Below, piece by piece: positions 10,769-63,852 of a stretch of 64,000 nucleotides of DNA. The notes beneath the pieces are model-generated. The model worked only from the letters and a program-made list of their open reading frames with translations, was not told the origin of the DNA and did not search any database. Origin of the DNA: Bacillota bacterium (lineage in GTDB: Bacteria; Bacillota; Sulfobacillia; JAIMAT01); NCBI GenBank assembly GCA_023511835.1, contig JAIMAT010000005.1:2049-66048 (forward strand), in the 5' to 3' direction. A program made the translations under genes and the position numbers. Positions within the stretch are counted from its first letter, which is position 1, and each line of letters begins with the position of its first letter.

Positions 10769-10775
10769 CCCCCCC

Positions 10776-12234: not shown

Positions 12235-12248
12235 TTGATCTGAATAAA
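12235..12248. promoter_or_regulatory. FNR/Crp-type box upstream of cydA
   Basis: TTGAT-CTGA-ATAAA, one mismatch from TTGAT-N4-ATCAA, in an AT-rich patch ~65 bp upstream of cydA. Confidence 0.4.
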
Positions 12249-25463: not shown

Positions 25464-25567
25464 GAACGCGCATTCCGATAGATGCACCCTTAGGAAATAT
25501 ACTTACAAAGCATAAGGGCGGACCGCCGGAGCCGGGCCGCGGCGGGGCGCCCGTAGGGGGGTCGGAG

Positions 25568-27089: not shown

Positions 27090-27125
27090 AGGCCGAGGCG
27101 GCAAAGGCACGGGGGTGAGCGTGGC

Positions 27126-27677: not shown

Positions 27678-27743
27678 GCGGGGACGCATTCGCGGCCGGC
27701 CCGGGCTGGCGCGAGGAAGGGCCGGCGGACGGAGGGGACCTGG

Positions 27744-27905
27744 GTGCTGTTGCAGCTGTCGGGCGCACGTGGTGAAGCGATCGAACTGCTGCTGGTGATG
27801 GTGACGCTGGGCCTCTTCTACGTGGCGATGTACGCCATCGACCGCTGGATGCGCGTCGACGGCGTCCAGCATCCCGTCCGGGGGGGTGGCCGGCGTGGCC
27901 GATGA
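27744..27905 (+). CDS. Small single-TM protein (53 aa) inside the Rieske/cytochrome b operon, absent from the ORF track
   Basis: [10 protein letters not shown] then GTG; MLLQLSGARGEAIELLLVMVTLGLFYVAMYAIDRWMRVDGVQHPVRGGGRRGR*; high GC3; overlaps the start of the cytochrome c gene. Confidence 0.6.
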   Translation: MLLQLSGARGEAIELLLVMVTLGLFYVAMYAIDRWMRVDGVQHPVRGGGRRGR

Positions 27906-30986: not shown

Positions 30987-31758
30987 TCTCCACCTTCGCC
31001 TCCACGGTGCCGCCGGCGGCGGCCACCAGCCCGCTCCGCCTCAGCCCGCGGTAGACGGCCACGGTCAGCACCATGGCCACCAGCGCCTCCGGCAGCCCCT
31101 GCACCACGGCGATGCCCAGCGAGAGCTGCCAGGGCAGGTAGCCGCGCAGCGTGACCAGCCCCAGCACGCCCACGGTGTTGGTCAGGCTCCCGGCGAGCGC
31201 CGCCAGCGCCGGCCCCACGTCACGCTGGCGGAGCCAGCGCAGCACCAGCCAGGCGCTGGCCGCGGCCACCGCCAGCGAGGCGACCAGGCCCGCGGGGGTG
31301 ACCCCCGGGTAGGGGGAGCGGACCGAGGTGGGCAGGCCCCCCGCCAGGCGGTAGGTGGCGTCGCCCAGCGCCAGCGCCACCAGCGCCGCCACCGCAGCGC
31401 GACCGGCGCGGTGGCGGGCCGCCCGGAAGGCCGCCCAGGCCACCAGACCGATGAGGATGCGCGGCACGAAGGCCACCAGGGGGTCGCTGAACATCACCCG
31501 GGCCACCGGGTTGGCGGCGTGGGTGAGCGCCTGCCAGTAGCTGAAGGTGCCGAAGAGAAAGCCGGCGACCGCGCCGGCCAGCGGGCCCTCGGCCAGGGCC
31601 GCCAGGATGACGGGGATGTGGATGGTGGTGGCCGAGCCCGCGGGCGTCGGTACCGGGATGAAGCCCAGCGGGGTCATGCCCAGGACGACAACCAGCGCGC
31701 CCATGAGGGCGGTGACGACCATGCTGCGGGTGCGGGAGCGGCGCTCTGCCACGTGCAC
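30970..31758 (-). CDS. panT: ECF transporter S component, probably pantothenate-specific (PanT-like)
   Basis: TPLGFIPVP..SATTIHIPVILAA..EGP, PRILIG, GSLTNTVGVL, GLPEALVA; translationally coupled to coaX. Confidence 0.78.
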   Translation of the reverse strand: MHVAERRSRTRSMVVTALMGALVVVLGMTPLGFIPVPTPAGSATTIHIPVILAALAEGPLAGAVAGFLFGTFSYWQALTHAANPVARVMFSDPLVAFVPRILIGLVAWAAFRAARHRAGRAAVAALVALALGDATYRLAGGLPTSVRSPYPGVTPAGLVASLAVAAASAWLVLRWLRQRDVGPALAALAGSLTNTVGVLGLVTLRGYLPWQLSLGIAVVQGLPEALVAMVLTVAVYRGLRRSGLVAAAGGTVEAKVENVTRA

Positions 31759-31926
31759 GGGGATCCCTCCGTTCCGGCTCCGCCTCCGCGGATGCCGTTC
31801 GTCGGACTGGCGGCGGCCCGGGTCGCGCGGCCTCGCGGTGCGAGCCGGCGGCTTCCGCCCGCGCCTGCGAACCGGGCCGATTCAGTATAAGCGCCCCGCC
31901 CCCACCGCGGGAAGCGGAGCCTCCCT

Positions 31927-36295: not shown

Positions 36296-38035
36296 TCAGT
36301 CGTATTTGCGCGGGCGGGGCGGGATGAGCGAGGTGTCGACGGCCTCGTAGCTGAACTTCGGCCCGTCCGGCGTGAAGGTGGCGATGGTCGTCTTCAGCCA
36401 GTGCTCGTCGTCCCGCTGCGGAAACTCGGGCTTGTAGTGGGCGCCGCGGCTCTCGTTCCGGTTGAGCGCGCCCAGCGTGATCGCCCGCGCCAGCTGCAGC
36501 ATGTGGTAGAGGTGGGCGGTGAACTGGACCGACTGGTTGGTCCAGCGGCCCGCGTCGGGGGTGCCGATCCGCTCCCAGCGCTCCAGCAGCTCCTGGAGCT
36601 TGGCGTCGGTCTCGCGCAGACGGTCGTTGTAGCGGACCACCGTCACGTTGTCCGTCATCACCTGGCCCAGCTCCTGGTGGATGCGGTACGGGTTCTCCTT
36701 GCCGTCCATGCGGTAGATCCGCTCGTACCGCTCCTCCACCCGCTTCCTCTCCGCCTCGAAGAGGCTCTCGGGCAGGTCCCAGGCGTCCTGGTCGAGCCCC
36801 TCCAGGTGCTTCTGGATGGTCGGGACGACGGTCATGCCGTCGTAGATGCAGGAGAGGAGCGAGTTGGCGCCCAGCCGGTTGGCGCCGTGGTGCTGGTACT
36901 CCGCCTCCCCGGCGGCGAAGATGCCCGGCACCGAACTCTGCATCCCGTAGTCCACCCAGAGCCCGCCCATGTTGTAGTGGACGGTGGGGAAGACCTTCAT
37001 CGGCACCTTGCGCGGGTCGTCGCCGACGAACTTCTCGTAGATCTCCAGCACGCCGCCCAGCTTCCTCTCCAGCACCTCGGCCGGGATGTGGGTGACGTCC
37101 AGGTAGACCATGTTCTTGCCGTCGATGCCCAGGTGCTGGTTGACGCAGACGTCGAAGATCTCGCGCGTCGCGATATCCCGCGGCACCAGGTTGCCGTAGT
37201 GCGGGTACTTCTCCTCCAGGAAGTACCACGGCTTCCCGTCCTTGTAGACCCAGACGCGGCCGCCCTCCCCGCGGATGGACTCCGACATCAGCCGGTTCTT
37301 GTCCCCGCCGGGGATGGCGGTGGGATGGACCTGGATGAACTCGGGGTTGGCGTACTTCAGCCCCTGCTGGTAGAGGATGCTGAGCGGCGCGCCGTCGTTG
37401 ATGATCGAGTTGGTGCTCTTGCCGAAGATGACGCCCAGCCCGCCCGTGGCGATGACCACGGCGTTGGCGCGGAAGGCGCGGATCTCCATGGAGTGCAGGT
37501 CCTGGGCGATGATGCCGCGCGCGATGCCGCGGTCGTCGATGACGGCGCCCAGGAAGTCCCACATCTCGTACTTCTGGACGCGCCCCTCCACCTCCCAGCG
37601 GCGCACCTGCTCGTCCAGCGCGTACATCAGCTGCTGGCCCGTGGTGGCTCCGGCGAAGGCGGTGCGGTGGAACTGCGTGCCGCCGAAGCGGCGGAAGTCG
37701 ATCAACCCCTCGGGCGTCCGGTTGAAGGGGACGCCCATGCGGTCGAACATGTAGATGATGTCGGGAGCCGCCTGGCACATGCCCAGCACCGGCGGCTGAT
37801 TGGCCAGGAAGTCGCCCCCGTAGACCGTGTCATCGAAGTGCTGCCAGGGTGAGTCGCCCTCACCCTTGGTGTTGACCGCCCCGTTGATCCCGCCCTGGGC
37901 GCAGACGGAGTGCGAGCGCTTCACCGGTACCAGCGAGAAGAGGTCGACCTGGAAGCCGGCCTCGGCGGCGCGGATGGTGGTCATCAGGCCGGCCAGGCCG
38001 CCCCCGACGACGATGATGCGGTTCTGCTTCGGCAA
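36296..38035 (-). CDS. sdhA: Succinate dehydrogenase flavoprotein subunit
   Basis: GGGLAG, RSHSVCAQGGING (covalent FAD His), QVHPT, VHYNMGG, HGANRLG.NSL, ESRGAH. Confidence 0.97.
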   Translation of the reverse strand: MPKQNRIIVVGGGLAGLMTTIRAAEAGFQVDLFSLVPVKRSHSVCAQGGINGAVNTKGEGDSPWQHFDDTVYGGDFLANQPPVLGMCQAAPDIIYMFDRMGVPFNRTPEGLIDFRRFGGTQFHRTAFAGATTGQQLMYALDEQVRRWEVEGRVQKYEMWDFLGAVIDDRGIARGIIAQDLHSMEIRAFRANAVVIATGGLGVIFGKSTNSIINDGAPLSILYQQGLKYANPEFIQVHPTAIPGGDKNRLMSESIRGEGGRVWVYKDGKPWYFLEEKYPHYGNLVPRDIATREIFDVCVNQHLGIDGKNMVYLDVTHIPAEVLERKLGGVLEIYEKFVGDDPRKVPMKVFPTVHYNMGGLWVDYGMQSSVPGIFAAGEAEYQHHGANRLGANSLLSCIYDGMTVVPTIQKHLEGLDQDAWDLPESLFEAERKRVEERYERIYRMDGKENPYRIHQELGQVMTDNVTVVRYNDRLRETDAKLQELLERWERIGTPDAGRWTNQSVQFTAHLYHMLQLARAITLGALNRNESRGAHYKPEFPQRDDEHWLKTTIATFTPDGPKFSYEAVDTSLIPPRPRKYD

Positions 38036-38047
38036 CGTCTCTCCCCC

Positions 38048-38647
38048 CTACGCCACGAAGGCGATGGCCGAGCCGAGGCTGAGGAGGCTGAGCGCCACGA
38101 AGAAGACGCCCAGCACCCACTGCGCCACCTGCTGCGCCCGCGGGCTGACCAGGATCCCCCAGTCGATCCCGAAGAGCCAGAGGCCGTTGGCCAGGTGCCA
38201 GGTGGCCGAGAGGATGCCCACGACCCAGAAGGCGAAGGTCCACGGGTTGGAGAGCTCGGCCGCCACCTTGGCGAAGCTGGCGGACGGGCCCACGAAGCGC
38301 AGCGTCAGCACGTGGTAGACGATGAAGACGAAGACGATCACGCCGGTGGCGCGCTGCAGCGTGAAGTACCAGTTGCGGGCGAAGGGGTAGCGGTTGACGT
38401 TGTATTGCGCCGTCCGCATGATGACGAAACCGTAGATCGCGTGATAAAGGATCGGAAGAAAGATGAAGAGCGTCTCCACCACGATCAGAGCCGGCAGGCT
38501 TTCCAGCAGGCGCACCACCTGGTTGTAGGCCTTGGGTCCTGCCAGCGCCGCCGAGTTGGCCCAGAGGTGGAAGGTGAGGAAGACGCCGACGGGCACGACG
38601 CCACTGAGCGAATGGAGCCGGCTCCAGAAAAAGTGGCTGACGCGCAA
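38048..38647 (-). CDS. sdhC: Succinate dehydrogenase cytochrome b558 anchor (Bacillus-type, diheme)
   Basis: RLHSLSGVVP.G.FL.FHL, PILYHAIYG, QRATG, YHV, WHLANGLW. Confidence 0.93.
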   Translation of the reverse strand: MRVSHFFWSRLHSLSGVVPVGVFLTFHLWANSAALAGPKAYNQVVRLLESLPALIVVETLFIFLPILYHAIYGFVIMRTAQYNVNRYPFARNWYFTLQRATGVIVFVFIVYHVLTLRFVGPSASFAKVAAELSNPWTFAFWVVGILSATWHLANGLWLFGIDWGILVSPRAQQVAQWVLGVFFVALSLLSLGSAIAFVA

Positions 38648-38822
38648 TCGCCCTCTCTCCCTTCGCCGTGCGCCCGGTCCGGCCGCCGAGCGGCGGCTAG
38701 GATGCTCGACACGGCTAGAAGTATAGCACCCGCTCCCGGCCCCGGCCGGGGCGCGCCCGCCCGGGGCGGGCGGCGGAGGGGCGGCACGATTTGGCTAGAA
38801 TGGGCCCCGGGGAGGTCGCCCG

Positions 38823-44199: not shown

Positions 44200-44667
44200 G
44201 TGGGCAAGACGGCAGGATGGTCCTCCTCGCCGCCGGGTGACTGGCGGCTCCCCAGGACACGTGCCCGCACGGCCCTGCGCGGCGTGCGCGGCGCCACCAC
44301 GGCGGAGGACGACACGGCCGACGCCATTCGGCGGGCGACCCAGGAGCTCCTCGAGGAGCTGGTGCGGCGGAACGGCCTGCGGCCCGAGGAGCTGGCCGCG
44401 GTCTTCTTCACCCTCACCCCCGACCTGACCGCCTTCTACCCCTCCCAGGCGGCGCGCGAGCTGGGCTGGCGGCTGGTGCCGCTGCTCGACCTGGGCCAGG
44501 CCCCCGGCCCGCGGCCCGTGGCGCGCTGCATCCGGGTGCTGGCGCTCTGGAACACCACGCGGCGGCCGGAGGAGATCCGACACGTCTATCTGCGCGGGGC
44601 GGCGGGCCTGCGGCCCGACCTGGCCGCCGGCGAGGCGGGGGAGGCGGAGCCACCTTGGTCATCGTGA
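44200..44667 (+). CDS. aroH: Chorismate mutase, AroH class
   Basis: [16 protein letters not shown]...[29 protein letters not shown]. Confidence 0.92.
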
Positions 44668-45719
44668 TGCGCGAGGGTGCGGCGGCGAGCGAGGTCGAGC
44701 GGGTGGTGCGGGCGGTGGAGGAGCTGGGCCTGCGCCCGCACCGCTCCGACGGCGAGCTGCGCTCGGTGGTGGGCGTCATCGGCGACGTCAGCCGCGTCTC
44801 CGAGGAGCACTTCCTGGCGATGCCGGGCGTGGAGCGGGTGGTGCGGCTGGAGCAGCCGTACAAGCTGGCGAGCCGCGCCTTCCGCCCCGAGGGCTCGCGC
44901 GTCTGGGCGGGGCCGGTGGAAGTGGGGGGCCCCGGGATCGTGGTCATGGCCGGCCCCTGCAGCGTGGAGAGCCGCGAGCAGCTGCTGGAGGCGGCCCAGG
45001 CGGTGCGCGCGGCCGGCGCCGCCGTCCTGCGCGGCGGCGCCTTCAAGCCGCGCACCTCGCCCTACACCTTCCAGGGACTGGGAGCGGAGGGGCTCCGCCT
45101 CCTGGCCGAGGCCCGGCAGCGCACCGGCCTGCCCGTGGTGACCGAGGTGATGGCGCCCCAGGAAGTGGAGCTGGTGGCGGAGTACGCCGACGTGCTCCAG
45201 GTGGGCACGCGCAACATGCAGAATTTCCCGCTGCTCCGGGAGCTGGGGCGTGCCGGCAAGCCGGTCCTCCTCAAGCGCGGCATGTCGGCCACCGTGGAGG
45301 AGTGGCTCCTGGCGGCCGAGTACGTCCTCAGCCACGGTAACCCCGACGTCATCCTCTGCGAGCGGGGCATCCGCACCTTCGAGCCGGCGACGCGGAACAC
45401 GCTGGACCTGGGGGTGGTGCCGCTGGTCAAGCGGTTGAGCCACCTGCCCGTGGTGGTCGACCCCAGCCACGCCACCGGCCTCTGGGAGCTGGTGACGCCC
45501 ATGGCACTGGCCGCCGTGGCGGCGGGCGCCGACGGCCTGCTCATCGAGGTCCACCCCGACCCCAGCCGGGCGCTCTCGGACGGCCGCCAGTCGCTGCGGC
45601 CGGACCGGCTGGCGCGCCTGGTGGAACAGGCCGAGGCGGTGGCCCAGGCGGTGGGGCGCTGGATCCTCCGCCCGGAGCAGGCGGAGCTGCCCAGGCGGGC
45701 GGCGGCGGCCGGACGGTAG
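44655..45719 (+). CDS. aroF: DAHP synthase type I-beta with N-terminal ferredoxin-like regulatory domain
   Basis: [61 protein letters not shown]. Confidence 0.95.
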
Positions 45720-45735
45720 GGGAGGGGAGCCCGCC

Positions 45736-46671
45736 GTGCGTGAGCGGGCGGTGGCCATCTTCGGCCTGGGCCTGATCGGGGCCTCCGTCGGCCTCGGCCT
45801 GGCGGGGCGGCTGCGGCGGCTGGGCGCCGATCCCGACCCCGAGGCGCGCCGCGTGGCGGAGGCGACGGGCGCGGTGGAGGCGGCCCACGAGGCGCCGGGC
45901 CCCTGGCTGGGCGAGGCCTCGCTGGTCGTCCTGGCCGCGCCGCCCGGGGCGCTGCCTGCCCTGGCGGCCGCCGTGGCGCCGTGGCTCGCCCCGGACGCCG
46001 TCGTCACCGATGTGGCCGGCGCCAAGGGCCGTGTGGCCGCGGCGCTGGAGCCGCTTCTGCCCGCGGGGCGTTACGTGCCCGGCCACCCCATGGCGGGCAG
46101 CGAACGGACGGGCGCGCGCTGGGCCGATCCCGCCCTCTTCCGCGGCGCGGTCTGGTTCTTCTGCCCGCCACCGGCCGCCTCCGCCGCCGGCACCCCCACC
46201 GCGGCATGGGAGGCGGCGTACGCGCGCGCCGCCCGGCTCGCGGAGAGCCTGGGCGCCCGCCCCCTCCGGCTGCCGGCGGCGCTCCACGACCGCTGGGTGG
46301 CGCGCACCAGCCACCTGCCCTACCTGGTGGCGGCGGCGCTGGCGGCCGCGGCCGGCGTGGAGGAGTCGCAGGGCATCGCCCAGGCGGTGGCGGGCGGCTT
46401 CCGCGACGGCACGCGGGTGGCGGCGATGAACCCGGAGGTGGGCGCCGGCATGTGCCTGGCCAACCGGGAGGAGCTCCTGGCCGCGCTGGGCGCCTTCCGC
46501 CGGGCGCTGGATGCGCTGGAGGAGGCGCTCGGCGAGGGACGGGAGGAGCGGCTGGTCGGCCTCCTGGCGCGGGCCCGGGCCGCCCGCGCCGCCCTGCTCG
46601 AGGCGGCGGAGGCGGCGACGGATGGGGAGCCCGCGCCGGCGGGGCCCTCCGCGGGGAGGGATGGCGACTGA
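45736..46671 (+). CDS. tyrA: Prephenate dehydrogenase
   Basis: GLGLIGAS, TDVAGAK, PGHPMAGSE, HD..VARTSHLP, GGFRDGTRVA. Confidence 0.88.
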   Translation: MRERAVAIFGLGLIGASVGLGLAGRLRRLGADPDPEARRVAEATGAVEAAHEAPGPWLGEASLVVLAAPPGALPALAAAVAPWLAPDAVVTDVAGAKGRVAAALEPLLPAGRYVPGHPMAGSERTGARWADPALFRGAVWFFCPPPAASAAGTPTAAWEAAYARAARLAESLGARPLRLPAALHDRWVARTSHLPYLVAAALAAAAGVEESQGIAQAVAGGFRDGTRVAAMNPEVGAGMCLANREELLAALGAFRRALDALEEALGEGREERLVGLLARARAARAALLEAAEAATDGEPAPAGPSAGRDGD

Positions 46672-47996
46672 AGCTGCGCCTGGAGGCGAGAAGGCGACCG
46701 CTCGAAGGAAGTTTCCGTCCGCCCGGCGACAAGTCCGTCTCGCACCGCGCCGCGCTCCTGGCCGGCGCGGCGCGCGGACGCTCGTGCCTGCGCGGCCTGG
46801 CGCCGGGCGCCGACGTGGCCTCGACACTCCGCGCGCTGGAGGCTCTGGGCGTCCGCCTGGAACGCCGCCCGGAGCGGGGCGGGGAGACGGTGGTGGAGAG
46901 CCCGGGGCTCGACGCCTGGGCGGAGCCGGCCGACGTGGTCGACTGCGGCAACTCCGGCACCACCATCCGCCTCCTGGCCGGGCTCCTGGCCGCTCGGCCG
47001 GGGCTGGCGGTGCTGACCGGCGACACCTCGCTGCGCCGCCGGCCCATGGACCGGGTGGCCGAGCCGCTCCGCGCCATGGGCGCCTCCGTGGACGGGCGTG
47101 AAGGCGGCCGCTACGCCCCCCTGGTGGTGCGCGGCGGGCCGCTCCGCCCCCTGGCCTGGCGGAGCCCGGTGGCCAGCGCCCAGGTCAAGTCGGCCATCCT
47201 CCTGGCCGCCCTGCGCGCGCCCGGCGAGACCGCCGTCTGGGAGCCGGTGCCCAGCCGCGACCATACGGAGCGCCTCTACGCCTGGCTGGGGCTGCCGATC
47301 CGCACCGGGGGGAGCGGCGGAGAGGAGCCGGCGGGCGGTCCGCCTCCCGTCCGGCTGGCCGGCCCCGCCAGCCCGCCCCCCTTCGCTCTGGAGGTTCCGG
47401 GCGACCCCTCGGGCGCCTTCCCCTACGCTGTCCAGGCGGCGCTGACGCCCGGCTCGGAGCTGGAGATCGAGGGCGTGCTGCTCAACCCGCTCCGCCTGGG
47501 GGGCTACCGGCTGCTGGAGCGCATGGGCGCCCGCCTCGAGCTCGTCCGCGAGGGCGAGGCGGGCGGCGAGCCCGTGGGCCGCATCCGCGTACGGGCCTCG
47601 GCGCTCGGGGCCATCGAAGTACGGCCGGAGGAGGTGCCGGCGGCGGTGGACGAGCTGCCGCTCCTGGCCGTGGCCGCCTGCGCGGCCGAGGGCGAGAGCC
47701 GCTTCCTGGGGCTGGGCGAGCTGCGCGTCAAGGAGAGCGACCGGCTCCACGCCATGGCCGCCGGCCTGCGCGCCATGGGCCTTCCGGTGGAGGAGGAGGG
47801 GGACGGCTGGCGGGTGCGGGGGCCGGCACGGGGGCACGGCGCCGCCCTGGAGAGCGCGGGCGACCACCGGGTTGCCATGGCGCTGGCGGTGGCCGCCTGG
47901 ACGCTGCTCGCCCCGGGCGAGGTGGCGGAGCTGGAGGGCGCGGAGAGCGTGGCCATCTCCGACCCCGATTTCTTCCGGCGGGCGGGCGTCGCCTGA
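46668..47996 (+). CDS. aroA: EPSP synthase, predicted CTG start overlapping the tyrA stop (CTGA)
   Basis: PGDKSVSHRA, DCGNSGTTIRL, SLRRRPM, SAQVKSA, RDHTER, VPGDPS, DELP, ELRVKESDR, DHRVAMA. Confidence 0.93.
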   Translation: MKLRLEARRRPLEGSFRPPGDKSVSHRAALLAGAARGRSCLRGLAPGADVASTLRALEALGVRLERRPERGGETVVESPGLDAWAEPADVVDCGNSGTTIRLLAGLLAARPGLAVLTGDTSLRRRPMDRVAEPLRAMGASVDGREGGRYAPLVVRGGPLRPLAWRSPVASAQVKSAILLAALRAPGETAVWEPVPSRDHTERLYAWLGLPIRTGGSGGEEPAGGPPPVRLAGPASPPPFALEVPGDPSGAFPYAVQAALTPGSELEIEGVLLNPLRLGGYRLLERMGARLELVREGEAGGEPVGRIRVRASALGAIEVRPEEVPAAVDELPLLAVAACAAEGESRFLGLGELRVKESDRLHAMAAGLRAMGLPVEEEGDGWRVRGPARGHGAALESAGDHRVAMALAVAAWTLLAPGEVAELEGAESVAISDPDFFRRAGVA

Positions 47997-48862
47997 TGCG
48001 GCTGGCGGTGGTGGGCGACCCGGTGGCCCACTCGCTCTCTCCGGCCATGCAGGAGGCGGGCCTGCGCGCCGCCGGCCTGGGCGGGCGTTACCTGGCGCTG
48101 CGCGTCGAGCGCGGGCGCCTGGCGGAGCGCGCAGCCGAGCTGGAGGCGGAGGGCTTCCTGGGACTGAACGTCACCATGCCGCTGAAGGAGGAGGCGCTGG
48201 CCCTGGCCCGGCGGCGGTCGCGCCGCGCGCTCCGGGCGGGCGCCGCCAACACCCTGGTACGCCTTCCGGAGGGGGGCTGGGCGGCGGAGAACACCGACGT
48301 GGAGGCGGTGGCGGGGGCGCTCGCCGAGCGCGGCTGGCGGCCGGGACCGGCGCTGGTGCTGGGCGCCGGCGGCGCGGCGGGGGCGGCGGCGGTGGCGCTG
48401 GGCGAGCTGGGCGCGCCGCGGGTGCGGCTCCTCAACCACCACGCCGGCCGGGCCGAGCGGCTGGCCGCGCGGATGCGCGCCCACTTCCCGGCCACCCGCT
48501 GGGAGGCGGCCTCCTGGTCGGAGGCCGGTGGCGTCGGGCAGGCCGGGGCTCCGGAGGGGTGGAGCCTCCTCGTGCAGGCGACGCCGCTGGCCATGGAGGG
48601 CGTCGGGGCCGGCTACCCGCTTCCGCCGGAGGAGCTGGCGGCCGCGCTGGCCCCGGGGGGATGGGTGGTGGAGCTGGTCTACCGGCCGCCGCGCACGCCG
48701 CTCCTGGAGGCGGCCTCGGCAAGGGGCCTGGGCGTGGTCGACGGGGTCGAGCTGCTGCTCCGACAGGGCGCCGCCTCCTTCGAGCTCTGGACGGGGCGGG
48801 AGGCGCCGCGGGAGGCGATGCGCCGGGCGCTGGAGGAGGTGCTGGGTTGCTCCGCTGGCTGA
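47996..48862 (+). CDS. aroE: Shikimate dehydrogenase
   Basis: GDPVAHSLSP.M, G.NVTMPLK, AANT, NTD, GAGGAA, ELVYRP..T, GVELLLRQGA..F..W. Confidence 0.92.
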   Translation: MRLAVVGDPVAHSLSPAMQEAGLRAAGLGGRYLALRVERGRLAERAAELEAEGFLGLNVTMPLKEEALALARRRSRRALRAGAANTLVRLPEGGWAAENTDVEAVAGALAERGWRPGPALVLGAGGAAGAAAVALGELGAPRVRLLNHHAGRAERLAARMRAHFPATRWEAASWSEAGGVGQAGAPEGWSLLVQATPLAMEGVGAGYPLPPEELAAALAPGGWVVELVYRPPRTPLLEAASARGLGVVDGVELLLRQGAASFELWTGREAPREAMRRALEEVLGCSAG

Positions 48863-50106
48863 CGGGGGGCGAGTCGCACGGCCCCGGGCTGACGGTCGTG
48901 GTGGACGGGCTGCCGGCGGGCGTCCCGCTGGACGGGGAGCGGGTGGCGGCCGAGCTGGCGCGCCGCCAGCAGGGCTACGGCCGCGGCGGGCGGATGCGCA
49001 TCGAGCGGGATCGGGCTCGCTTCCTGGGCGGGGTGCGGCACGGGCGCAGCACCGGGGCGCCGGTGGTCCTCTGGATCGAGAACCGCGACTGGGCCAACTG
49101 GCAGGAAGTCCTCTCCCCCGACCTGCCCTCCCCCGGCGCGGAGGCGGAGGGGGCGGGGGAGGCTCCGCGGGAGAGCCCCACGGCGGCGGAGCGGCGCCGG
49201 GCGCCGGTGGAGCGGCCGCGCCCGGGCCATGCCGACCTGGCCGGCGCCCTCAAGTACGGCCACCGCGACATGCGGGACGTGCTGGAGCGCGCCAGCGCCC
49301 GCGAGACGGCGGCGCGGACGGCGGCGGGGGCGGTGGCCAAGCGCCTCCTCGCCGAGCTGGGGGTGGAGGTGGGCAGCTTCGTCGAGCGCATCGGGCCGGC
49401 CACCTGGCGCAGGGAGCCCGCCTATCCGGCCGATCCGGACGCGTGGCGGGCCTGGGCGGCGGCGGCCGAGCGCTCGCCCGTCCGCTGCCCGGAGCCGCAG
49501 GCGGAGGCGGCCATGATGGAGGTCATCGAGCAGGCGCTGCGCGAGGGCGACACGGTGGGCGGCCGCTTCCTCGCCTTCGCCGTGGGCCTCCCCGCGGGCC
49601 TGGGCAGCTACGCCCAGTGGGACCGGCGCCTGGACGGCCGCATCGCCCAGGCCGTGGTCTCCATCCCCGGCGTCAAGGCGGTGGCCATCGGCGCCGGCGA
49701 GGAGATGGCGGAGGAGCCGGGTTCGTGCGTCCACGACCCGCTCCTGCCCGATCCCTCCGGTCCGCGGCCGGGGCGCTTCGTCCGTCCCAGCGACCGGGCG
49801 GGCGGGCTGGAGGGCGGCGTCACGAACGGCGAGCCGCTCCTGGTGAGCGGGGTGATGAAGCCGCTGGCCACGCTCCGCCGCGGCCTCCCCTCGGTCCACA
49901 TGCCCAGCGGGCAGCCGGCCGAGGCGACCTACGAGCGCTCCGACGTCTGCGTGGTGCCGGCGGCGGGGGTGGTGGCCGAGGCCATGCTGGCGCTGGTCCT
50001 GGCGGACGCGCTGCTGGAGGCGGTGGGTGGCGACAGCCTGGAGGAGGTGCGCCGCCACGTGGAGGAGCGGCGCCGCGCCCGGGAGGCCGGCTGGCCGTGG
50101 GGCTGA
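48847..50106 (+). CDS. aroC: Chorismate synthase
   Basis: LRWLTGGESHG, RRQQGYGRGGRM.IE, RPGHAD, LERASARETA, GGLEGG.TNG, MKP..TL, RSDVC.VP. Confidence 0.95.
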   Translation: MLRWLTGGESHGPGLTVVVDGLPAGVPLDGERVAAELARRQQGYGRGGRMRIERDRARFLGGVRHGRSTGAPVVLWIENRDWANWQEVLSPDLPSPGAEAEGAGEAPRESPTAAERRRAPVERPRPGHADLAGALKYGHRDMRDVLERASARETAARTAAGAVAKRLLAELGVEVGSFVERIGPATWRREPAYPADPDAWRAWAAAAERSPVRCPEPQAEAAMMEVIEQALREGDTVGGRFLAFAVGLPAGLGSYAQWDRRLDGRIAQAVVSIPGVKAVAIGAGEEMAEEPGSCVHDPLLPDPSGPRPGRFVRPSDRAGGLEGGVTNGEPLLVSGVMKPLATLRRGLPSVHMPSGQPAEATYERSDVCVVPAAGVVAEAMLALVLADALLEAVGGDSLEEVRRHVEERRRAREAGWPWG

Positions 50107-51767
50107 GCGCAGCCGGCGGGGTTCGGCTGGCGCTGGTCGGCCTGAGCGGCAGCGGCAAGGGGAGCGTGGGCCGGCTCCTGGCGCGGAGGCTGGACGTGGC
50201 CTGCCTCGACCTGGACCGTCTGGTGGAGCTGGAGGCGGGTGCGCCCGTCCGCCACATCTGGGCGGAGGAGGGGGAGCAAGGCTTCCGGCGCCGCGAGGCG
50301 GCGGCGCTGGAGCGGGCTCTGGAGCTGGGCGAGGCCGTGCTGGCCACCGGCGGCGGCACGCCCCTCCTGCCCGGCGCCATGGACAGGCTCGTGGCCTGGG
50401 GCCGGGTGGTCTGGCTGGACGCGCCGCCCGAGGTGCTGGCCGCCCGGCTGGGGGAGGAGGAAGTGGCCGGGCGGCCGCTCTTCGCCGGCCGCCTGCCGGC
50501 GGAGGTGCTGCGCGCGCAGCTGGCCGCCCGGCGCGCCGTCTACGCGCGGGCGCTCCGCATCGACGCCGCGGCCGCCCCGGCCGAAGTGGCGGAGCGCGTC
50601 CTGGCCGCCGCCGGCCTTCGCCCGGCGGAGCGGCCGTCCGCCGTGCGCCGGCTCTCCGTGGGCGGCGCCTACGAAGTGGAGGTGAGCGACGCGGCGCCCG
50701 AGCGGCTGGCCGACTGGCTGGCCGGGGCGGGGGCGGAGCGGCTGGTGCTGCTGGCGGAGCCGCTGGCGGGGGCGCTGGCCGGCGGGGAGATCCTGGAGGC
50801 CTGCCGCGCCCGGGGGCTCCAGGCGGAGCTCCTCCTCTTCCCCGGCGGCGAGGAAGCCAAGCGCCTCGTGACGGTGGAGCGCCTCTACCACGAGCTGGTG
50901 CGGCGGGGCGTGGAGCGGACCACCTGGCTGCTGGCCGTGGGCGGCGGGGTGACCACCGACCTGGGCGGCTTCGTCGCCGCCACCTTCCTGCGCGGCCTGC
51001 CCTGGGTGGCCGTGCCCACCACGCTCCTCGCCCAGGTGGACGCCGCCATCGGCGGCAAGACCGGCGTCGACCTGGAGGAGGGGAAGAACCTGGTGGGCGC
51101 CTTCTACCCGCCGCGCCGGGTCGTCGCCGACGTGCGCTGGCTGCGCGCCCTGCCGCGACAGCTCCTCCTGGAGGGGATGGGCGAGGTGGTCAAGGCGGCG
51201 CTCCTGGCCGGCGAGCCCTTCTGGAGCTGGCTGGAGGAGGCGAGGCCGGCGCTGCTCGCCCGCGAGCCGGAGGCGCTGGCCGAGGCGGTGGCGCGCGCGG
51301 CCGCCGTCAAGGCCGAGGTGGTGGCCGCCGACGAGCGCGAGGCAGGGCGGCGCGAGCTGCTCAACCTGGGGCACACCTTCGCCCACGCGCTGGAGTGGGC
51401 CAGCGGCTACCGGCTCCGCCACGGCGAGGCGGTGGCCACGGGACTCTTTCTGGCCGCCCGGCGGGCGGAGGCGGAGGGGCTCCTGCCGGCGGCGGAGCGG
51501 CGCCGCATCGAGGCGCTGCTGGAGGCGTACGGGATCGGGAGGAGCGCCGCGCTGCCGCGCGGGGAGGCTTCCTCGCCCGACCGGCTGGCGGCGGCGCTGG
51601 CCGTCGACAAGAAGCGCCGCCATGGCCGGCTCCGCCTGGTGCTGCCGCGGGCGGTGGGCGACGTGGTCGCTGGCTGGCCGGCCGAGACGGAGGAGCTGGC
51701 CCGCTGGCTCGCCTCCGCGCTGGAGCGGTTATCCTGGGAAGGAGAGAAGCCCACGGGAAGAGGGTGA
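50097..51767 (+). CDS. aroKB: Fused shikimate kinase / 3-dehydroquinate synthase (AroK-AroB)
   Basis: GLSGSGKGSVG, GE.GFR.RE, ATGGG, RP; then GEEAK, GGGVTTDLGGF, PTTLLAQVDAAIGGKTG, LNLGHTFAHALE, HGEAVA. Confidence 0.92.
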   Translation: MGLSAAGGVRLALVGLSGSGKGSVGRLLARRLDVACLDLDRLVELEAGAPVRHIWAEEGEQGFRRREAAALERALELGEAVLATGGGTPLLPGAMDRLVAWGRVVWLDAPPEVLAARLGEEEVAGRPLFAGRLPAEVLRAQLAARRAVYARALRIDAAAAPAEVAERVLAAAGLRPAERPSAVRRLSVGGAYEVEVSDAAPERLADWLAGAGAERLVLLAEPLAGALAGGEILEACRARGLQAELLLFPGGEEAKRLVTVERLYHELVRRGVERTTWLLAVGGGVTTDLGGFVAATFLRGLPWVAVPTTLLAQVDAAIGGKTGVDLEEGKNLVGAFYPPRRVVADVRWLRALPRQLLLEGMGEVVKAALLAGEPFWSWLEEARPALLAREPEALAEAVARAAAVKAEVVAADEREAGRRELLNLGHTFAHALEWASGYRLRHGEAVATGLFLAARRAEAEGLLPAAERRRIEALLEAYGIGRSAALPRGEASSPDRLAAALAVDKKRRHGRLRLVLPRAVGDVVAGWPAETEELARWLASALERLSWEGEKPTGRG

Positions 51768-51771
51768 CCCC

Positions 51772-52560
51772 TTGCGACTCTTCGCCGCCGCCATGCCGGA
51801 CCTCGGGCGGCTGCCGGCTCAGCTCCCCGAGGGGGCGCTGGTGGTGGTCGCGCCCTCCGGCGAGGCCTGGGAGGAGCAGCTCGGCCGGGCCGGCGAGCTG
51901 GCCCGCTCGCGCGCGCTCTGGGTGGTGGTGGCCGGCCCGCGTCGGGAGGGGGAGGGGTGGCGCCTCTCCGCCGCCTGCCTCTCGCCCGAGGGCCGCCCGG
52001 TGGCCGTGCAGGACGAGCTCTTCCCGCCGCAGGGCTGGCGCGCGGGCGGGCGCCTGGAGCTCTTCGAGCTGGCGGGCTGGCCGGCGGCGCTGCTGGTGGG
52101 CGAGGACGTCCTCTGGCCGGAGGTGGCCCGACTGGCGACGCTGGAGGGTGCGCGCCTGCTGGCGGTCCCCAGCCTCTACCCGCCGGAGGAGGCGGGGGGC
52201 GCGCCGACGGGGCCCTGGCGCCAGCTGGCGGGCGGCTGGCAGGAAGTCCAGCAGAACCAGGTCTTCGCTGTCGAGAGCCCGCTGGACGGCGAGCTGGCGG
52301 GACGGCGCTCGCACGGCCGCGCCGCCGTCTGGGCCCCTTGCGAGATCACGCCCGACTCCCGCGGCTGGCTGGACTGGGCCGAGAAGCCCGGCGAGGCGGC
52401 TGCGGCATGGCTGGAGGAGGAGGCGCTCGAGGGGATCCGCGACGCCTACCCGCTGGAACGTTTCCTCAACCCGGCGCTCTACCGGCGGCGGCTGGCGGAG
52501 GCCTACGAGCGGTTGGCGGGCGAGGCGGGCGCGGGTGCGGCGGGAGGCGGGGAGCGATGA
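51772..52560 (+). CDS. Carbon-nitrogen hydrolase (nitrilase) fold protein lacking the catalytic triad
   Basis: Fold pattern recognisable (LLVGED.LWPEVARLATLEGARLL.VP, QQNQVF.V, G.AAVWAPCE), but Gly replaces the nucleophilic Cys and the Glu/Lys are not seen. Confidence 0.7.
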   Translation: MRLFAAAMPDLGRLPAQLPEGALVVVAPSGEAWEEQLGRAGELARSRALWVVVAGPRREGEGWRLSAACLSPEGRPVAVQDELFPPQGWRAGGRLELFELAGWPAALLVGEDVLWPEVARLATLEGARLLAVPSLYPPEEAGGAPTGPWRQLAGGWQEVQQNQVFAVESPLDGELAGRRSHGRAAVWAPCEITPDSRGWLDWAEKPGEAAAAWLEEEALEGIRDAYPLERFLNPALYRRRLAEAYERLAGEAGAGAAGGGER

Positions 52561-56379: not shown

Positions 56380-57507
56380 CTAGACGTCCGCCTGCTGGGC
56401 CGCCGGCCGCTGGACGGGAAGGAAGCGGTCGGCCAACCGGGCCATGATCTGGGGCATGGTGGTGTACTCCATGTCTTCGGCGGGCAGGCGGTGCGGCTCG
56501 AAGGGGCCCTGGCGCCGGATGTATCCGGCGATCTCGTTGGCGAGCCGGCGTGCCTCGTCGAAGGCGACGTCGGCGAACATGTCGCGTGGCCCCACCAACT
56601 CGCCGTCGGCCAGCTGGTAGCCCAGGCCGATGACGCGGGGCGGCCCGTCGAAGCGCGTCGGATGTGCCTGGTCGACGGAGCAGGGCATCAGCGGCCCGAC
56701 GAAGGAACCCCGCATCCAGCCGCCCACCAGGTGCGGTGTGCTGAAGGCCTCCAGCACCTCGCCGACGGCGGGCAGGCCGCTCTGGCAGCGGACGATCATG
56801 GACGGGTCGTCCTTGCCCACGTAGCGGCCGGCGATCAGGTTGAGGCGCTGGGTGGTGGCGACGGCGGCGATCTCGCCCAGCTCGCGCGAGTAGACGGCGC
56901 TGATGACGTAGCGGCCGGGCGTGCCGATGAAGGCCAGAAGGTCATAGGCCTCCTCGGGGCAGTTGAGGCGGATGAGACGGTCTTCACGCAGGTCGTGTAC
57001 CTCGAAGGTGAAGCCGCCGTGCATCTTGGGGTCGATAACCAGCCCCGGGGTGTTGAAGGGATCGGCGAAGATCCGGTAGAGAGGCAGGTTCCAGGCGCCC
57101 GGCTCGGTCTTGTCGGCCATGAAGATGAGCAGCGGTTCGCTGGGCCGTTCCTCGAACTCCATCTCGGCGATCCCCGGGCCGAGGCCGCGGATATTGCCCG
57201 AGAAGGCGTCGGCCAGCAGGTCCTGGCCGGCCCCGTAGAGCTTCAGCCGCCTGGCCACGTCGGTGCAGCCGCGGAAGGTATCCCAAGCGAGCTGGTGGAC
57301 GGCCGGGTCGTTGACGCCGCGGCGGTGGGTGAGCACCAGGTTGATGTCGTCGCCCACCGAGGAGACGCTGAAGTCGACCAGCAGCCGGCCCTTCTCCGCC
57401 GCCAGCGCCTCCCGGGCGTACTCCAGCGTCTCGGGGTGGACGGCACCGTGACCCACGAAACCGCCGATGTCCGCCTTGATCACGCTGACGGTGATCTTCT
57501 CGCCCAC
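56380..57507 (-). CDS. fbp: Bifunctional fructose-1,6-bisphosphate aldolase/phosphatase (FBPase class V)
   Basis: ITVSVIKADIGG..GH, GDD, KLYGAGQDLL.DAFSGN, DKTEPGA, YVGKDDP (Schiff-base Lys), GWMRGS, MEYTT; GTG after GGGAGGAGG. Confidence 0.95.
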   Translation of the reverse strand: MGEKITVSVIKADIGGFVGHGAVHPETLEYAREALAAEKGRLLVDFSVSSVGDDINLVLTHRRGVNDPAVHQLAWDTFRGCTDVARRLKLYGAGQDLLADAFSGNIRGLGPGIAEMEFEERPSEPLLIFMADKTEPGAWNLPLYRIFADPFNTPGLVIDPKMHGGFTFEVHDLREDRLIRLNCPEEAYDLLAFIGTPGRYVISAVYSRELGEIAAVATTQRLNLIAGRYVGKDDPSMIVRCQSGLPAVGEVLEAFSTPHLVGGWMRGSFVGPLMPCSVDQAHPTRFDGPPRVIGLGYQLADGELVGPRDMFADVAFDEARRLANEIAGYIRRQGPFEPHRLPAEDMEYTTMPQIMARLADRFLPVQRPAAQQADV

Positions 57508-58975: not shown

Positions 58976-59050
58976 GGGCGAATAGCTCAGCGGCAGAGCA
59001 CCCGCCTTACACGCGGGGGGTCGCAGGTTCGAACCCTGCTTCGCCCACCA
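58976..59050 (+). tRNA. tRNA-Val: tRNA-Val (anticodon TAC)
   Basis: GGGCGAA/TTCGCCC acceptor stem, GCTC/GAGC D stem, CCCGC-CTTACAC-GCGGG anticodon arm, GCAGG-TTCGAAC-CCTGC T arm, encoded CCA. Confidence 0.98.
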
Positions 59051-59369: not shown

Positions 59370-60209
59370 TCAAGTCCGGGGAGGAGTCGGTGACCCCCGC
59401 GAGGTCTCTCCCGCCCGCCGCGTCCACGGCGATGGCGGTTCCGTGGTCGTGATCGCTCCCCCCATGACACGGCGGGCACCGCGAATCGCCAGTTCAGCGA
59501 ACGCCCGGAGCAGCAGGGCGCTGCCCACCCCCCGCCGTCGGAACCGATGACGGGTGCCGAGGAAAGCGATGACCCCCTCTCCGTCGGCTGTGCGAGCGAC
59601 CAGAGCGCCGGCCGGCTCATCATGGACGGAGGCGACGTACCGAAGGCCGGCGTCATGTCCGGGACGGCTTTCCTGCTCGGCGAGGAAGGTTTCGAAATCC
59701 AGGGGACGATGGTCCCAATGGTCACTTTGGGCTTCCTCAATAATTTCATGAACCAGCCGCAACCCGGCGTCGCCATCTGCCGGACGCACGCGCACGTCGG
59801 CGGCGGTGACCGCTTCAGACGGTTCGCGAGGGAGCTCCAACGACATTCTCAAGTAGGTTCGCACCTTCTGCCAACTCAACTCCTCCAGCCACGGGGAAGC
59901 CACGCCGCCCGTCACTTGCCACAGACTGATCATTGGCGCACCGCGCCGCTCGGCCTTGGTGCCGATCCGGCGAAGCAGGGCAAGAGCGCCTTGCTGGAAT
60001 TCGGGAACCGCCGCAAACCGGGCTCGCAGTTCCCTCGTCTTGGCGAGGTGACGGAGCGAGCCGAATGCCGCAACTTCGCCCGAAACGAGGGCCACCCAGG
60101 CACCCATGTCGCTCTCGACCATCGCCTCTCGGACATCGGCTTCGGCCGTGATGATCGTTCCGAGCTCCGCGATGTCCATGCGGTGGTAGACCCCCAGGAT
60201 CGCGCCCAT
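59370..60209 (-). pseudogene. Tandem-domain GNAT acetyltransferase (MshD-like), apparently damaged at the C-terminus
   Basis: AILGVYHRMDIAELG, VRVRPAD, EEAQSDHWDH.P..FE.F, LGTRHRFRRRGVGSALLLRAF (acetyl-CoA motif A). The reading degenerates after RRVMGG; no clear RBS; lower GC. Confidence 0.6.
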
Positions 60210-60374
60210 TTCATCCGATCCGCAGCGCGGGGCCGGGATCAGCCGGAGTATGCTGTACGAGAGGCGGGGCGGGCCCGCGGGTCGGTCGGACGGAGCCGGA
60301 CGACTTCGTCGGCCACGAGACGCCGCCGCGGGCGCGTCGGAGAGCAAGCCAACGTCCTGCGCGGGCGACATGGG

Positions 60375-60821
60375 GTGGTGACCGCATTGGGTCTGCCTGT
60401 GAAAGCCGTGGCCTACGGGTTGCTCGCCTTGGTTGTGGCGACAGGTCTTCCGATCGTACCCCTGCCCGTGCCCCCGCCCGTGAGAAACTTGCACTTCGCC
60501 AGTTCACACCTCTCGCTGGTCGCGGGCCGGAGGGCGGGAATCGGGTGCGAGGTGACGCAAGGCGTATCGGTTCCCGCCGGAGCTCCTGGCGGTGTATCGT
60601 TTCCCGTCGCATACAACCCCGTATCGTGCATGACGCTTTTGAGAGTGGGGATTTTAGGCGCCAGTGAGAATCAACCGACAACAGCGGATCGCGACTGCTA
60701 TGTACTGAAACTGCAAAGCGGAAAGGTCGCCGTCACACCGCCCGGCTACAAGTGCATTAAGATCATCTTGCCGGACGGCAGGACGTTCATTCGCAACTTG
60801 GCCGGCACAGGCGGCAAGTAG
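60375..60821 (+). CDS. Orphan putative secreted/membrane-anchored protein (~148 aa), lower GC
   Basis: Hydrophobic N-terminus VKAVAYGLLALVVATGLPIVPLPVPPP, four Cys, atypical codon usage. Confidence 0.45.
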   Translation: MVTALGLPVKAVAYGLLALVVATGLPIVPLPVPPPVRNLHFASSHLSLVAGRRAGIGCEVTQGVSVPAGAPGGVSFPVAYNPVSCMTLLRVGILGASENQPTTADRDCYVLKLQSGKVAVTPPGYKCIKIILPDGRTFIRNLAGTGGK

Positions 60822-61276
60822 GGCGAACCGGCGGCAGACGTTTGTTCCCTATGCTGGATGAGCGAGGATGCGGACGGCTGGGGCCCGCCGCGATGCCGTA
60901 CGAACCCGGGCGACTCCGAGGGCCCCGGCCTTTCGCCCGCCGGGGAGCGGGCCGCGGAGACCGCAGGTGGCACCCGGGAGAGGGCTGGACGAACGCACGA
61001 TCTCCGGCGCCCGGGTTCGACACCACCGCGTACATGAGGGCGCGCCGTACCCTCGCTGGGAGAGGCTGCCCGGTCCGGACTCCATCGCGTTCCCGACAGA
61101 AGCGACGGAAATCCGCAGCAGGGTGCGGGTCCGAGCACATTCTGCGAGCCATTCTCCGGGCGTCTGGAACGTCGTATTCTCCGGCGACACGGGCTGGAGG
61201 TGGTCCGCCGTGACGCGGCAACGGAGGGACGTATCCGTGGAGCGCCGGACAGCTTCGCGGTGGAGATGAACGCGAC

Positions 61277-61567
61277 ATGCGCGCGGCGAGGAAGTGGTTC
61301 CGGCGACGGTGGCTTCTCTGGAGGGCGAACGTCCTGGAGCGGGAGGCGGCCGGGCTCCGGGGCAAGCCGACCCTCCTGGACGACCCGTACTTTGTGAGCT
61401 ACGTCAACCCCATCGCGGCGGCCCTCTGGTCGTGGGTCTTTCACCTCGTCGAGGGTCGAGTTGGAAGCAAGGGATCCAACGGGAAAGAGAGTCCCCAGGC
61501 CCGCGCGGCCGGTCTGGAGCGGCGCGCCGCGGAGCTGAGGGCGGAGGCGGACCGGCTCGGAGGCTGA
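61277..61567 (+). CDS. Small hypothetical protein (96 aa)
   Basis: GGAG RBS + ATG; basic/Trp-rich N-terminus, central hydrophobic stretch, helical C-terminus. Confidence 0.45.
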   Translation: MRAARKWFRRRWLLWRANVLEREAAGLRGKPTLLDDPYFVSYVNPIAAALWSWVFHLVEGRVGSKGSNGKESPQARAAGLERRAAELRAEADRLGG

Positions 61568-63052: not shown

Positions 63053-63097
63053 GCCGGGGCGGCCGTCAGGGCGGCGAGCCGTCGCGGACGACGCCAA

Positions 63098-63114
63098 TTC
63101 TTATCCTCTTCTCA
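63098..63114 (+). promoter_or_regulatory. 11-bp-periodic direct repeat, possible OmpR/PhoB-family response-regulator site
   Basis: TTCTTA-N5-TTCTCA in an AT-rich patch ~90 bp upstream of the 63205 gene. Confidence 0.35.
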
Positions 63115-63204
63115 GCTTCGTCTGGGAGGCCCGTCAAGGCTTTCCTCTAGCCTTCCTGGAAACAGGCGGAGCTCCAGGAAGCGAGCGGGGGAGCGTGATC
63201 TCGC

Positions 63205-63816
63205 GTGGCCCGTGCAGGACGTACCCTGGCGGTCCTCGGCGCGCTGGGTGCTTTCGTGACCGGCGGCGCCAGCGCCCTCCGGCAGGCGCCCGGGGTGGCC
63301 CAGGCCGCCCCTGCCGCCGGCCCCGTGGCGGGCCTCTCCGCCGGCGAGCTGGCCGCGCTCGAGCGGCGGCTGGAGGCGGAGCTGGCCGCCCAGGAGCGTT
63401 CCATCCGCCTCCTCGACCAGCGGCGCCAGCAGCTGGAACAGGCGCTGGCCGACGCCCAGCGGCAGCTGGCCCAGAAGGAGGCGGCGGTGGCCGCGGCCCG
63501 CTCGAGCCTGGCCCTCCTCCAGACGCAGATCCAGCAGCGCCAGGCCGCCCTCCTCCAGGCCCAGGCGTCGCGGGCGGCGGCGGCCGCCGCCGCCCGGCAG
63601 GCCGCCACCAGGCCCGGTGGCGCCCCGCCTGTGGACACGCTGACCGGGGCCTCCTCCGCGCACGGCGCGGTGGCCGCCCCCGGCCAGGGGAGCTCCGTGC
63701 AGCCGCGGGTCGACAGCCTGACCGGCGCCTCCGGAGGCGCGGGCTACCAGGGCGGACGGGAGCGGCATCACGAGCGGGAGCACGAAGGAGAGCACGAGGG
63801 CGGCGACGACGACTGA
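63205..63816 (+). CDS. Secreted coiled-coil protein with two putative flavinylation motifs (VDTLTGAS, VDSLTGAS) and a His/Glu-rich tail
   Basis: Sec-like signal peptide, ~85-aa coiled coil, motifs at 63631-63654 and 63709-63732, C-terminus RERHHEREHEGEHEGGDDD. Confidence 0.75.
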   Translation: MARAGRTLAVLGALGAFVTGGASALRQAPGVAQAAPAAGPVAGLSAGELAALERRLEAELAAQERSIRLLDQRRQQLEQALADAQRQLAQKEAAVAAARSSLALLQTQIQQRQAALLQAQASRAAAAAAARQAATRPGGAPPVDTLTGASSAHGAVAAPGQGSSVQPRVDSLTGASGGAGYQGGRERHHEREHEGEHEGGDDD

Positions 63817-63823: not shown

Positions 63824-63852
63824 CGCCCCGCCGGCCGCGGGCCGGCGGGGCG
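63824..63852. terminator. GC-rich hairpin between convergent genes (probable terminator)
   Basis: CGCCCCGCCGGCC-GCG-GGCCGGCGGGGCG, a perfect 13-bp stem; no U tract. Confidence 0.55.

Follow-up and report, generated by a model that had tools for sequence, protein, structure and literature searches.

Can a secreted protein that has no folded flavin-binding domain be a natural substrate of ApbE, the enzyme that transfers flavin mononucleotide (FMN) from flavin adenine dinucleotide (FAD) to proteins? The question is raised by a gene at 63205..63816 on the forward strand of a 64,000-nucleotide stretch of DNA (hereafter, the window) from a Bacillota bacterium (contig JAIMAT010000005.1 of assembly GCA_023511835.1). 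The gene encodes a 203-residue protein, here called the stalk protein, in which a predicted signal peptide and a long coiled coil are followed by a disordered tail with two ApbE-type motifs. On balance, we lean towards the reading that the stalk protein is a Sec-exported, two-site ApbE substrate that acts as a domain-less, tethered flavin electron carrier.

Two ApbE-type motifs on a disordered tail

The features of the gene product are listed below with their coordinates in the window.

63205..63816, forward strand: coding sequence of the 203-aa coiled-coil protein, predicted to be secreted (reading frame, codon G+C, six contigs)
63205..63276, forward strand: predicted Sec-type signal peptide, residues 1-24, with n-, h- and c-regions MARAGR / TLAVLGALGAFVT / GGASA (hydropathy, a model helix at 4-27, near-invariance in the homologs)
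63340..63609, forward strand: single long alpha-helix forming a coiled-coil stalk, residues 46-135 (AlphaFold2 and heptad register)
63610..63813, forward strand: disordered, acidic tail rich in Gly, Ala, Pro and Ser, residues 136-203, 68 aa (predicted local distance difference test score, pLDDT, of ~50; no secondary structure)
63631..63654, forward strand: motif 1, VDTLTGAS, residues 143-150, with Ser150 as predicted FMN acceptor; in the alignment with the homologs, it pairs with their single invariant motif
63709..63732, forward strand: motif 2, VDSLTGAS, residues 169-176, with Ser176 as predicted FMN acceptor
63757..63813, forward strand: His/Glu/Asp-rich C-terminus RERHHEREHEGEHEGGDDD, residues 185-203 (read from the sequence; little of it is kept in the homologs)

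ApbE moves FMN from FAD to the final Ser or Thr of the consensus D-x-x-[S/T]-G-A-[S/T] (PMC12052999), which both DTLTGAS and DSLTGAS match exactly. An earlier note on this DNA had described the same 8-mer occurring twice, 26 residues apart and in different codons. The spacing holds, with the two Asp residues 26 positions apart, and the identity was overstated: the 8-mers are 7/8 identical, and their DNA differs at 3/24 positions, two of these changes being synonymous. In the six-frame translation of the window (~128,000 residues), D..[ST]GA[ST] occurs at only these two places, so that two copies within 33 residues are not an effect of composition. Counted over the window and the two 20-kb homolog loci described below, ~210,000 further six-frame residues contain no copy of the motif. 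Flavinylation has been shown for Ser acceptors and for motifs on an unstructured C-terminal extension (PMC12052999; PMC11334425), and Ser serves as acceptor somewhat less readily than Thr (PMC12052999). According to the flavin-tag work as summarised in PMC12052999, the seven-residue motif alone suffices for ApbE and works best at a protein terminus.

The motifs lie in the disordered tail and not in an FMN_bind fold, as the earlier note had proposed. Pfam and NCBIfam scans of the 203-aa protein gave only sub-threshold coiled-coil matches and no domain, and neither the FMN_bind domain (PF04205) nor any other folded FMN-binding domain was found around the motifs with Pfam, NCBIfam or AlphaFold2.

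The gene is confirmed as real, and the feature described in the earlier note as non-random. The open reading frame (ORF), which runs from a GTG start through its stop codon, matches the earlier description exactly, and the identical 203-aa protein is encoded on six independent public contigs (five Logan assemblies and one NCBI metagenome-assembled genome (MAG), GCA_019683775.1). The window has a G+C content of ~75%, and long spurious ORFs overlap the gene on both strands; they fit the codon-position G+C signature of the genome less well than the 203-aa frame, whose G+C at positions 1/2/3 is 0.87/0.60/0.92, the same pattern as in the adjacent kinase gene. An antisense or overlap artefact of a 75% GC genome was rejected on the basis of codon-position G+C and the conserved homologs. 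The GTG start is confirmed by the N-terminus MAR[AV]GRTLAVLGA, with which both homologs also begin.

An extracytosolic location is predicted from the N-terminal Sec signal, the features of which are conserved in the homologs, in line with the signal recognised in the earlier note. Its hydrophobic core (residues 7-25, mean Kyte-Doolittle 1.66) is followed by GGASA|L, and we infer cleavage after GGASA from this layout. A Tat signal was rejected, as the stalk protein has no twin-arginine motif. The helix at 46-135 was predicted by AlphaFold2 from the single sequence with a pLDDT of 95-98, and 13/17 of its L/I/V/M/F residues fall in one a/d heptad register. The coiled coil reported earlier therefore stands, at about 90 residues instead of ~85. 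It is probably oligomeric and, if straight, would be ~13.5 nm long (90 residues at 0.15 nm each). The tail, with a net charge of -6 and five His by composition count, adds a flexible contour length of up to ~24 nm, and the chain ends in HHEREHEGEHEGGDDD, just as originally stated. Such a rod could conceivably span the Gram-positive wall.

A very small family with an invariant motif

An exhaustive phmmer search of 1.84 billion representative proteins returned exactly one relative (P0001, 152 aa, E 2.5e-20). The second homolog, at locus L009, came from a pattern scan of GTDB species genomes and belongs to 'MAG: Bacillota bacterium isolate Bu54'. Both homologs are from uncultured high-GC Bacillota and carry the NCBI label 'hypothetical protein [Bacillota bacterium]'. 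A word-indexed protein search with the stalk protein scored 8000 low-complexity candidates, none of which reached the threshold, and two JGI metagenome scans, one with the stalk family and one with the six-transmembrane (six-TM) family introduced below, found no relatives.

In a three-way alignment, A-P-x-V-D-T-x-T-G-A-S-S is invariant in all three known members of this very small family. The signal peptide is near-invariant, and outside it the motif block is the best-conserved part, whereas stalk length and the remainder of the tail vary. Each homolog has one motif, as against two in the window protein, and the same alignment identifies motif 2 as a duplicate copy, specific to this lineage, of the P-x-V-D-[TS]-x-T-G-A-S unit; its nearest counterparts in the homolog cluster are the units PRVDTTTGAS and PQVQTTTGAS. 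Conservation in homologs, which the earlier note had proposed as a check, thus extends to the motif itself; the second copy and the His tail are confined to the window lineage. The suggested metal- or haem-binding tail is accordingly not a conserved feature: the His cluster is lineage-specific, the end of the window protein is far more His-rich, and the homologs share with it only 'REH.G' and acidity. A C-terminal FGSGE.EGSEGWG block conserved between the homologs is absent from the window protein, which has a different tail instead.

The homologs lead a four-gene cluster with apbE

At both homolog loci (L007 and L009), the stalk gene is the first of four same-strand genes, which encode in order the stalk protein, a TM-anchored protein, ApbE and a six-TM protein. 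Genes 1 and 2 overlap by 4 nt, genes 2 and 3 are separated by 14 or 22 nt, and genes 3 and 4 overlap by 4 nt (ATGA); the overlap of stop and start codons points to co-translation with apbE. Within both 20-kb loci, [DQ]..[ST]GA[ST] is present only in genes 1 and 2, directly upstream of apbE.

Gene 2 (L007 10456-10854; L009 10507-10896) encodes a membrane-anchored mini coiled-coil protein of 129-132 aa, of which MDI3316732.1 is an example. The chain has an N-terminus rich in Arg, a single membrane segment devoid of charge, a short helix and a linker of polyproline, and it ends in P-Q-V-Q-T-T-T-G-A-S-stop. In this variant, VQTTTGAS at the extreme C-terminus, Gln replaces the 'strictly conserved' Asp; because Asp replacement in the motif has only minor effects (PMC12052999), it is still a plausible ApbE site. 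The motif decapeptide, 8/10 identical, is the sole likeness between the stalk protein and the gene 2 protein, and homology of the two was rejected for this reason. We also rejected a read-through fusion of the TM-anchored protein with ApbE, since the genes are in different frames.

Gene 3 encodes ApbE, as identified by PF02424 (L007 10877-11827, E 3e-55; L009 10911-11843, E 3e-54). The domain starts at residue 9, with an in-frame stop just upstream. Ser222 and His238 of the cluster enzyme, of which MDI3316733.1 is an example, correspond to catalytic residues in ApbEs of known structure, and in both loci Lys replaces Thr four residues after the triad position taken up below.

Gene 4 (L007 11824-12624; L009 11840-12646) is unannotated in either MAG, and its 3' end overlaps a convergent UDG-family gene. 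It is clearly coding, given a third-position G+C (GC3) of 0.94 and differences between L007 and L009 that are twice as frequent at third codon positions. Six hydrophobic segments are present in the product, and from the position of its Arg-rich loops both termini are expected in the cytoplasm (N-in/C-in). Four His are invariant, in L007 H96 and H110 (H-x13-H, helix 3) and H180 and H193 (H-x12-H, helix 5), with the same arrangement in L009; we take this spacing to be the haem-ligand geometry of the ferric-reductase/MsrQ superfamily. Six-TM, four-His cytochromes of the MsrQ-like, PepSY-like and DUF4405 types are the usual membrane partners in flavinylation clusters, where they accompany a flavinylated extracytosolic protein (PMC8238504; PMC11334425). 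The cluster protein resembles them in its six helices, in having four His in two helices and in its adjacent apbE, and differs in lacking both a match to a family profile and an NAD-binding domain. From these sequence features, it is likely an MsrQ/ferric-reductase-type cytochrome and looks like a new MsrQ-like family. A tblastn search of plasmids with the six-TM protein gave no match. The pairing of apbE with a likely ferric-reductase/MsrQ-type partner, for which the earlier note had suggested searching, is found in both homolog loci and is missing from the 64-kb window.

Upstream element and genomic surroundings

Three non-coding features accompany the stalk gene in the window.

63094..63136, forward strand: conserved non-coding element, TTCTTAYC ... 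TCTCAGSTTC ... CCGT, ~70-110 nt 5' of the start codon (alignment with both homologs)
63187..63193, forward strand: Shine-Dalgarno-like GGGGGAG, 11 nt 5' of the GTG start (read from the sequence)
63824..63852, no strand assigned: G+C hairpin with a perfect 13-bp stem and a loop of 3 nt, located where the stalk gene and a Peptidase_S8 gene converge, between their stop codons

The upstream element is present in all three family members (~9888-9930 in L007 and likewise ~9888-9930 in L009), with TTCTTA.C, TCTCAG.TTC and CCGT invariant, and it aligns across the three loci despite different upstream neighbour genes. It matched neither Rfam nor the sigma-70 consensus and may be a promoter or operator, perhaps an alternative-sigma promoter. 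The alignment suggests that the window gene and both cluster-leading homologs are regulated in common, and the retention of the element in the window argues for such common regulation and against decay of the gene. An FMN riboswitch or other leader RNA 5' of the stalk gene was rejected, as Rfam gave only a tRNA elsewhere.

The stalk gene is flanked in the window by a DUF1537-type sugar-acid kinase gene and a convergent subtilase (Peptidase_S8) gene. The 13-bp hairpin is likely a bidirectional terminator; it has no T-tract and for that reason was not called by a consensus terminator scan. Scans for intrinsic terminators and sigma-70 promoters around the stalk gene gave no match. A tblastx comparison of the window with the homolog loci returned only compositional noise and no synteny.

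The remaining window holds ordinary housekeeping and aerobic respiration genes with no bearing on the stalk gene. Respiratory genes are located at 6089-12263 (reverse strand), 25466-28872 (forward strand) and 36296-38794 (reverse strand). This set comprises cytochrome bd oxidase subunits I and II with two CydDC-type ABC transporter genes, a cytochrome b6/subunit IV/Rieske/cytochrome c complex, and the flavoprotein and cytochrome b subunits of succinate dehydrogenase. A shikimate/aromatic amino-acid operon at 44241-52560 (forward strand) lies in the most G+C-rich part of the window (79%) and encodes DAHP synthase (with a ferredoxin-like domain), prephenate dehydrogenase, EPSP synthase, shikimate dehydrogenase, chorismate synthase and a fused shikimate kinase/3-dehydroquinate synthase. 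At 30195-31881 (reverse strand), the S component of an ECF transporter, weakly matching the riboflavin type, is encoded next to a type III pantothenate kinase gene; the S component is probably a pantothenate or vitamin importer. In Listeria, ECF transporters supply flavins for extracytosolic flavinylation. Local G+C falls to 0.69 at 59655-61567, a region with a 388-aa ORF (GC3 0.72, weak codon-position bias) and a 96-aa ORF, neither of which has a Pfam match. Other genes include a class V fructose-1,6-bisphosphatase (FBPase_3, aldolase/phosphatase type) at 56806-57507 (reverse strand), a type common in thermophiles, a tRNA gene at 58976-59047 (forward strand) and an ArsB-type arsenite pump at 3016-4746 (forward strand).

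A proposed tethered flavin carrier and its alternatives

In the mechanism we favour, an ApbE-family FAD:protein FMN transferase would link FMN through a phosphoester bond to each of Ser150 and Ser176. This would yield a protein with two flavins, both exposed to solvent on a flexible tether and not buried in an FMN_bind domain. At the homolog loci, electrons would cross the membrane through the six-TM, four-His protein, a putative di-haem b cytochrome, and the membrane-anchored partner ending in VQTTTGAS would serve as a membrane-proximal tethered flavin that picks them up. The flavins of the stalk protein could then pass electrons outward to a soluble or metal acceptor, perhaps one held by the acidic/His tail. 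In the genome of the window, an ApbE encoded elsewhere would have to act in trans. Flavinylation, the binding of haem by the six-TM partner, the in-trans ApbE, and both the direction and the purpose of the electron flow are inferences from sequence and gene context. On this footing, flavinylation of the stalk protein appears fairly likely and the extracytosolic relay role somewhat less so; the view of the earlier note, that ApbE-flavinylated tails act as tethered flavin relays outside the membrane, is likewise supported.

Several observations weigh against this mechanism. The gene context is essentially one evolutionary observation, because L007 and L009 are close relatives with 73-86% identical proteins. 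The stalk gene is alone in the 64-kb window, which has no apbE and no homolog of the TM-anchored partner or the six-TM protein; for apbE, whose absence the earlier note had already reported, tblastn with two ApbE queries gave only E > 0.4. In the cluster ApbE of both loci, Glu266 replaces the Asp of the Asp-Ser-His triad, and the enzyme has no signal peptide, lipobox or hydrophobic segment, though both of its putative substrates look exported. The six-TM protein has no Pfam match at E <= 10, PF01794, PF14358 and PF03929 included, and nothing relevant was found for it in NCBIfam, or in the PDB by sequence or profile. An hhalign comparison with E. coli MsrQ (sequence taken from NC_000913) was co-linear over 121 columns at 28% identity, with a probability of 5.7% from very shallow profiles; on the favourable side, this alignment sets three of the four His on His91, His151 and His164 of E. 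coli MsrQ. In addition, a flavin without a protein pocket would lack a tuned potential and would react with O2.

The signal-less ApbE may be reconciled with exported substrates if flavinylation precedes export, if the enzyme reaches the outside by another route, or if the topology predictions are wrong. The lack of an export signal on the cluster ApbE is what makes flavinylation in the cytoplasm worth considering, and we speculate that the C-terminal tails are flavinylated there and then threaded through Sec with the flavin attached. Such an order of events would account for the position of the sites in unfolded C-terminal tails, and no export of FAD would be needed. A more far-reaching picture, which we hold only tentatively and regard as rather doubtful, is a natural 'flavin-tag' system in which pocket-less FMN on disordered tails shuttles between a di-haem cytochrome and external acceptors. 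With one membrane-anchored tail and one or two stalk-borne flavins, such a system might amount to a covalently leashed version of secreted flavin shuttles.

The tails could also be flavinylated and yet play a local role in place of a long-range wire, with the flavin acting as a detachable prosthetic group that docks on the outer face of the six-TM cytochrome, as part of a surface ferric or metal reductase whose metal the acidic/His tail would bind, or as an O2-reactive or consumed flavin. We consider this unlikely, if by no means fanciful. MsrQ-like and PepSY-like flavinylation clusters are mostly tied to iron reduction or assimilation (PMC8238504), in FMN_red a motif on an unstructured extension delivers the flavin to a nearby binding site (PMC11334425), and oxidase activity was seen for a three-FMN protein (PMC12052999); the acidic tail, His-rich in the window lineage, would also suit such a role. 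However, the His cluster is not conserved, the homolog clusters contain no iron transporter (VIT1, P19 or FTR), and a flavin whose only task is to dock at the membrane surface does not readily account for a stalk of 90 residues.

Two further explanations dispense with the flavin altogether, at least in the window genome. To the possibility that the protein is a secreted structural or envelope coiled coil, with TGAS as a protease site, another modification or an epitope and the apbE context a coincidence, we give little credence. The motif's absence from the other six-frame residues, its invariance in three diverged orthologues and its standing as the only block in common with an unrelated protein encoded directly before apbE all speak against coincidence, as do the overlapping stop and start codons that indicate co-translation with apbE. 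This must be set against a tail of biased composition in a 75% GC genome, a tiny family, a window copy with no apbE nearby, and homologs whose ApbE is predicted to be cytoplasmic and its substrates exported. Least probable, in our view, is that the window gene is an orphaned remnant, left unmodified or decaying after the four-gene cluster was broken up and its partners lost. A hairpin and a convergent protease gene, not partner genes, do lie directly 3' of it, and the FGSGE.EGSEGWG block of the homologs has been replaced by a different tail. Yet the ORF is intact with good codon-position G+C, its product is identical on the six independent contigs, which come from several samples, the upstream element has been kept, and a second motif copy has been gained, which implies selection on the motif rather than decay.

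Relation to known flavinylated proteins

To our knowledge, the flavin of every natural ApbE substrate described so far sits inside a folded domain (FMN_bind, DUF2271, DUF3570, NqrB/RnfD, Flavodoxin_4 or FMN_red), which is why surveys search for such domains. Our literature search found no description of a natural ApbE substrate without any domain. With the FMN_bind proteins NqrC, RnfG and PplA (PF04205), the stalk protein and its homologs have in common the D-x-x-[S/T]-G-A-[S/T] motif, a predicted extracytosolic location and, at the homolog loci, neighbouring genes for ApbE and membrane electron transfer. They differ in that the stalk protein has no folded domain, carries its motif in a disordered tail behind a coiled coil, and has Ser at the predicted acceptor position in place of the usual Thr.

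Multi-flavinylated proteins of Gram-positive bacteria have been proposed as electron carriers across the Gram-positive wall (Méheust et al. 2021, PMC8238504; Huang et al.). The stalk protein is similar in having more than one predicted flavin and a coiled-coil rod, in coming from Bacillota, and in its proposed role of electron transfer over distance outside the membrane. By definition, however, those proteins contain more than one folded FMN-binding domain per chain (Méheust 2021), whereas the stalk protein has two bare motifs and zero FMN-binding domains, so that Pfam-based surveys would miss it.

FMN_red (PMC11334425) comes closest to being a precedent for a motif outside a fold, in that one or two motifs lie on an unstructured C-terminal extension and Ser/Thr flavinylation has been shown. 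In FMN_red, the tethered flavin returns to a binding site in the protein's own domain, whereas the stalk chain has no such site. The engineered flavin-tag (Tong et al. 2021, as reported in PMC12052999) offers a second parallel, as a seven-residue motif standing on its own, whether in a loop or at a terminus, is described there as sufficient for FMN attachment by ApbE. That tag is a laboratory construct, and the stalk protein looks like its natural counterpart.

The stalk protein is thus best seen as a natural 'flavin-tag' protein, whose architecture is a new variant among ApbE substrates, and the four-gene flavinylation cluster of its homologs is previously undescribed and known so far from only a few uncultured high-GC Bacillota. 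The combination of a signal-less ApbE with exported substrates raises the question of where flavinylation happens. If our reading is correct, domain-based censuses undercount the flavinylated proteome, and the stalk protein would provide a minimal natural scaffold for tethered-flavin bioelectronics. It would also mean that leashed flavins, exposed to solvent, may serve bacteria as flexible electron relays.

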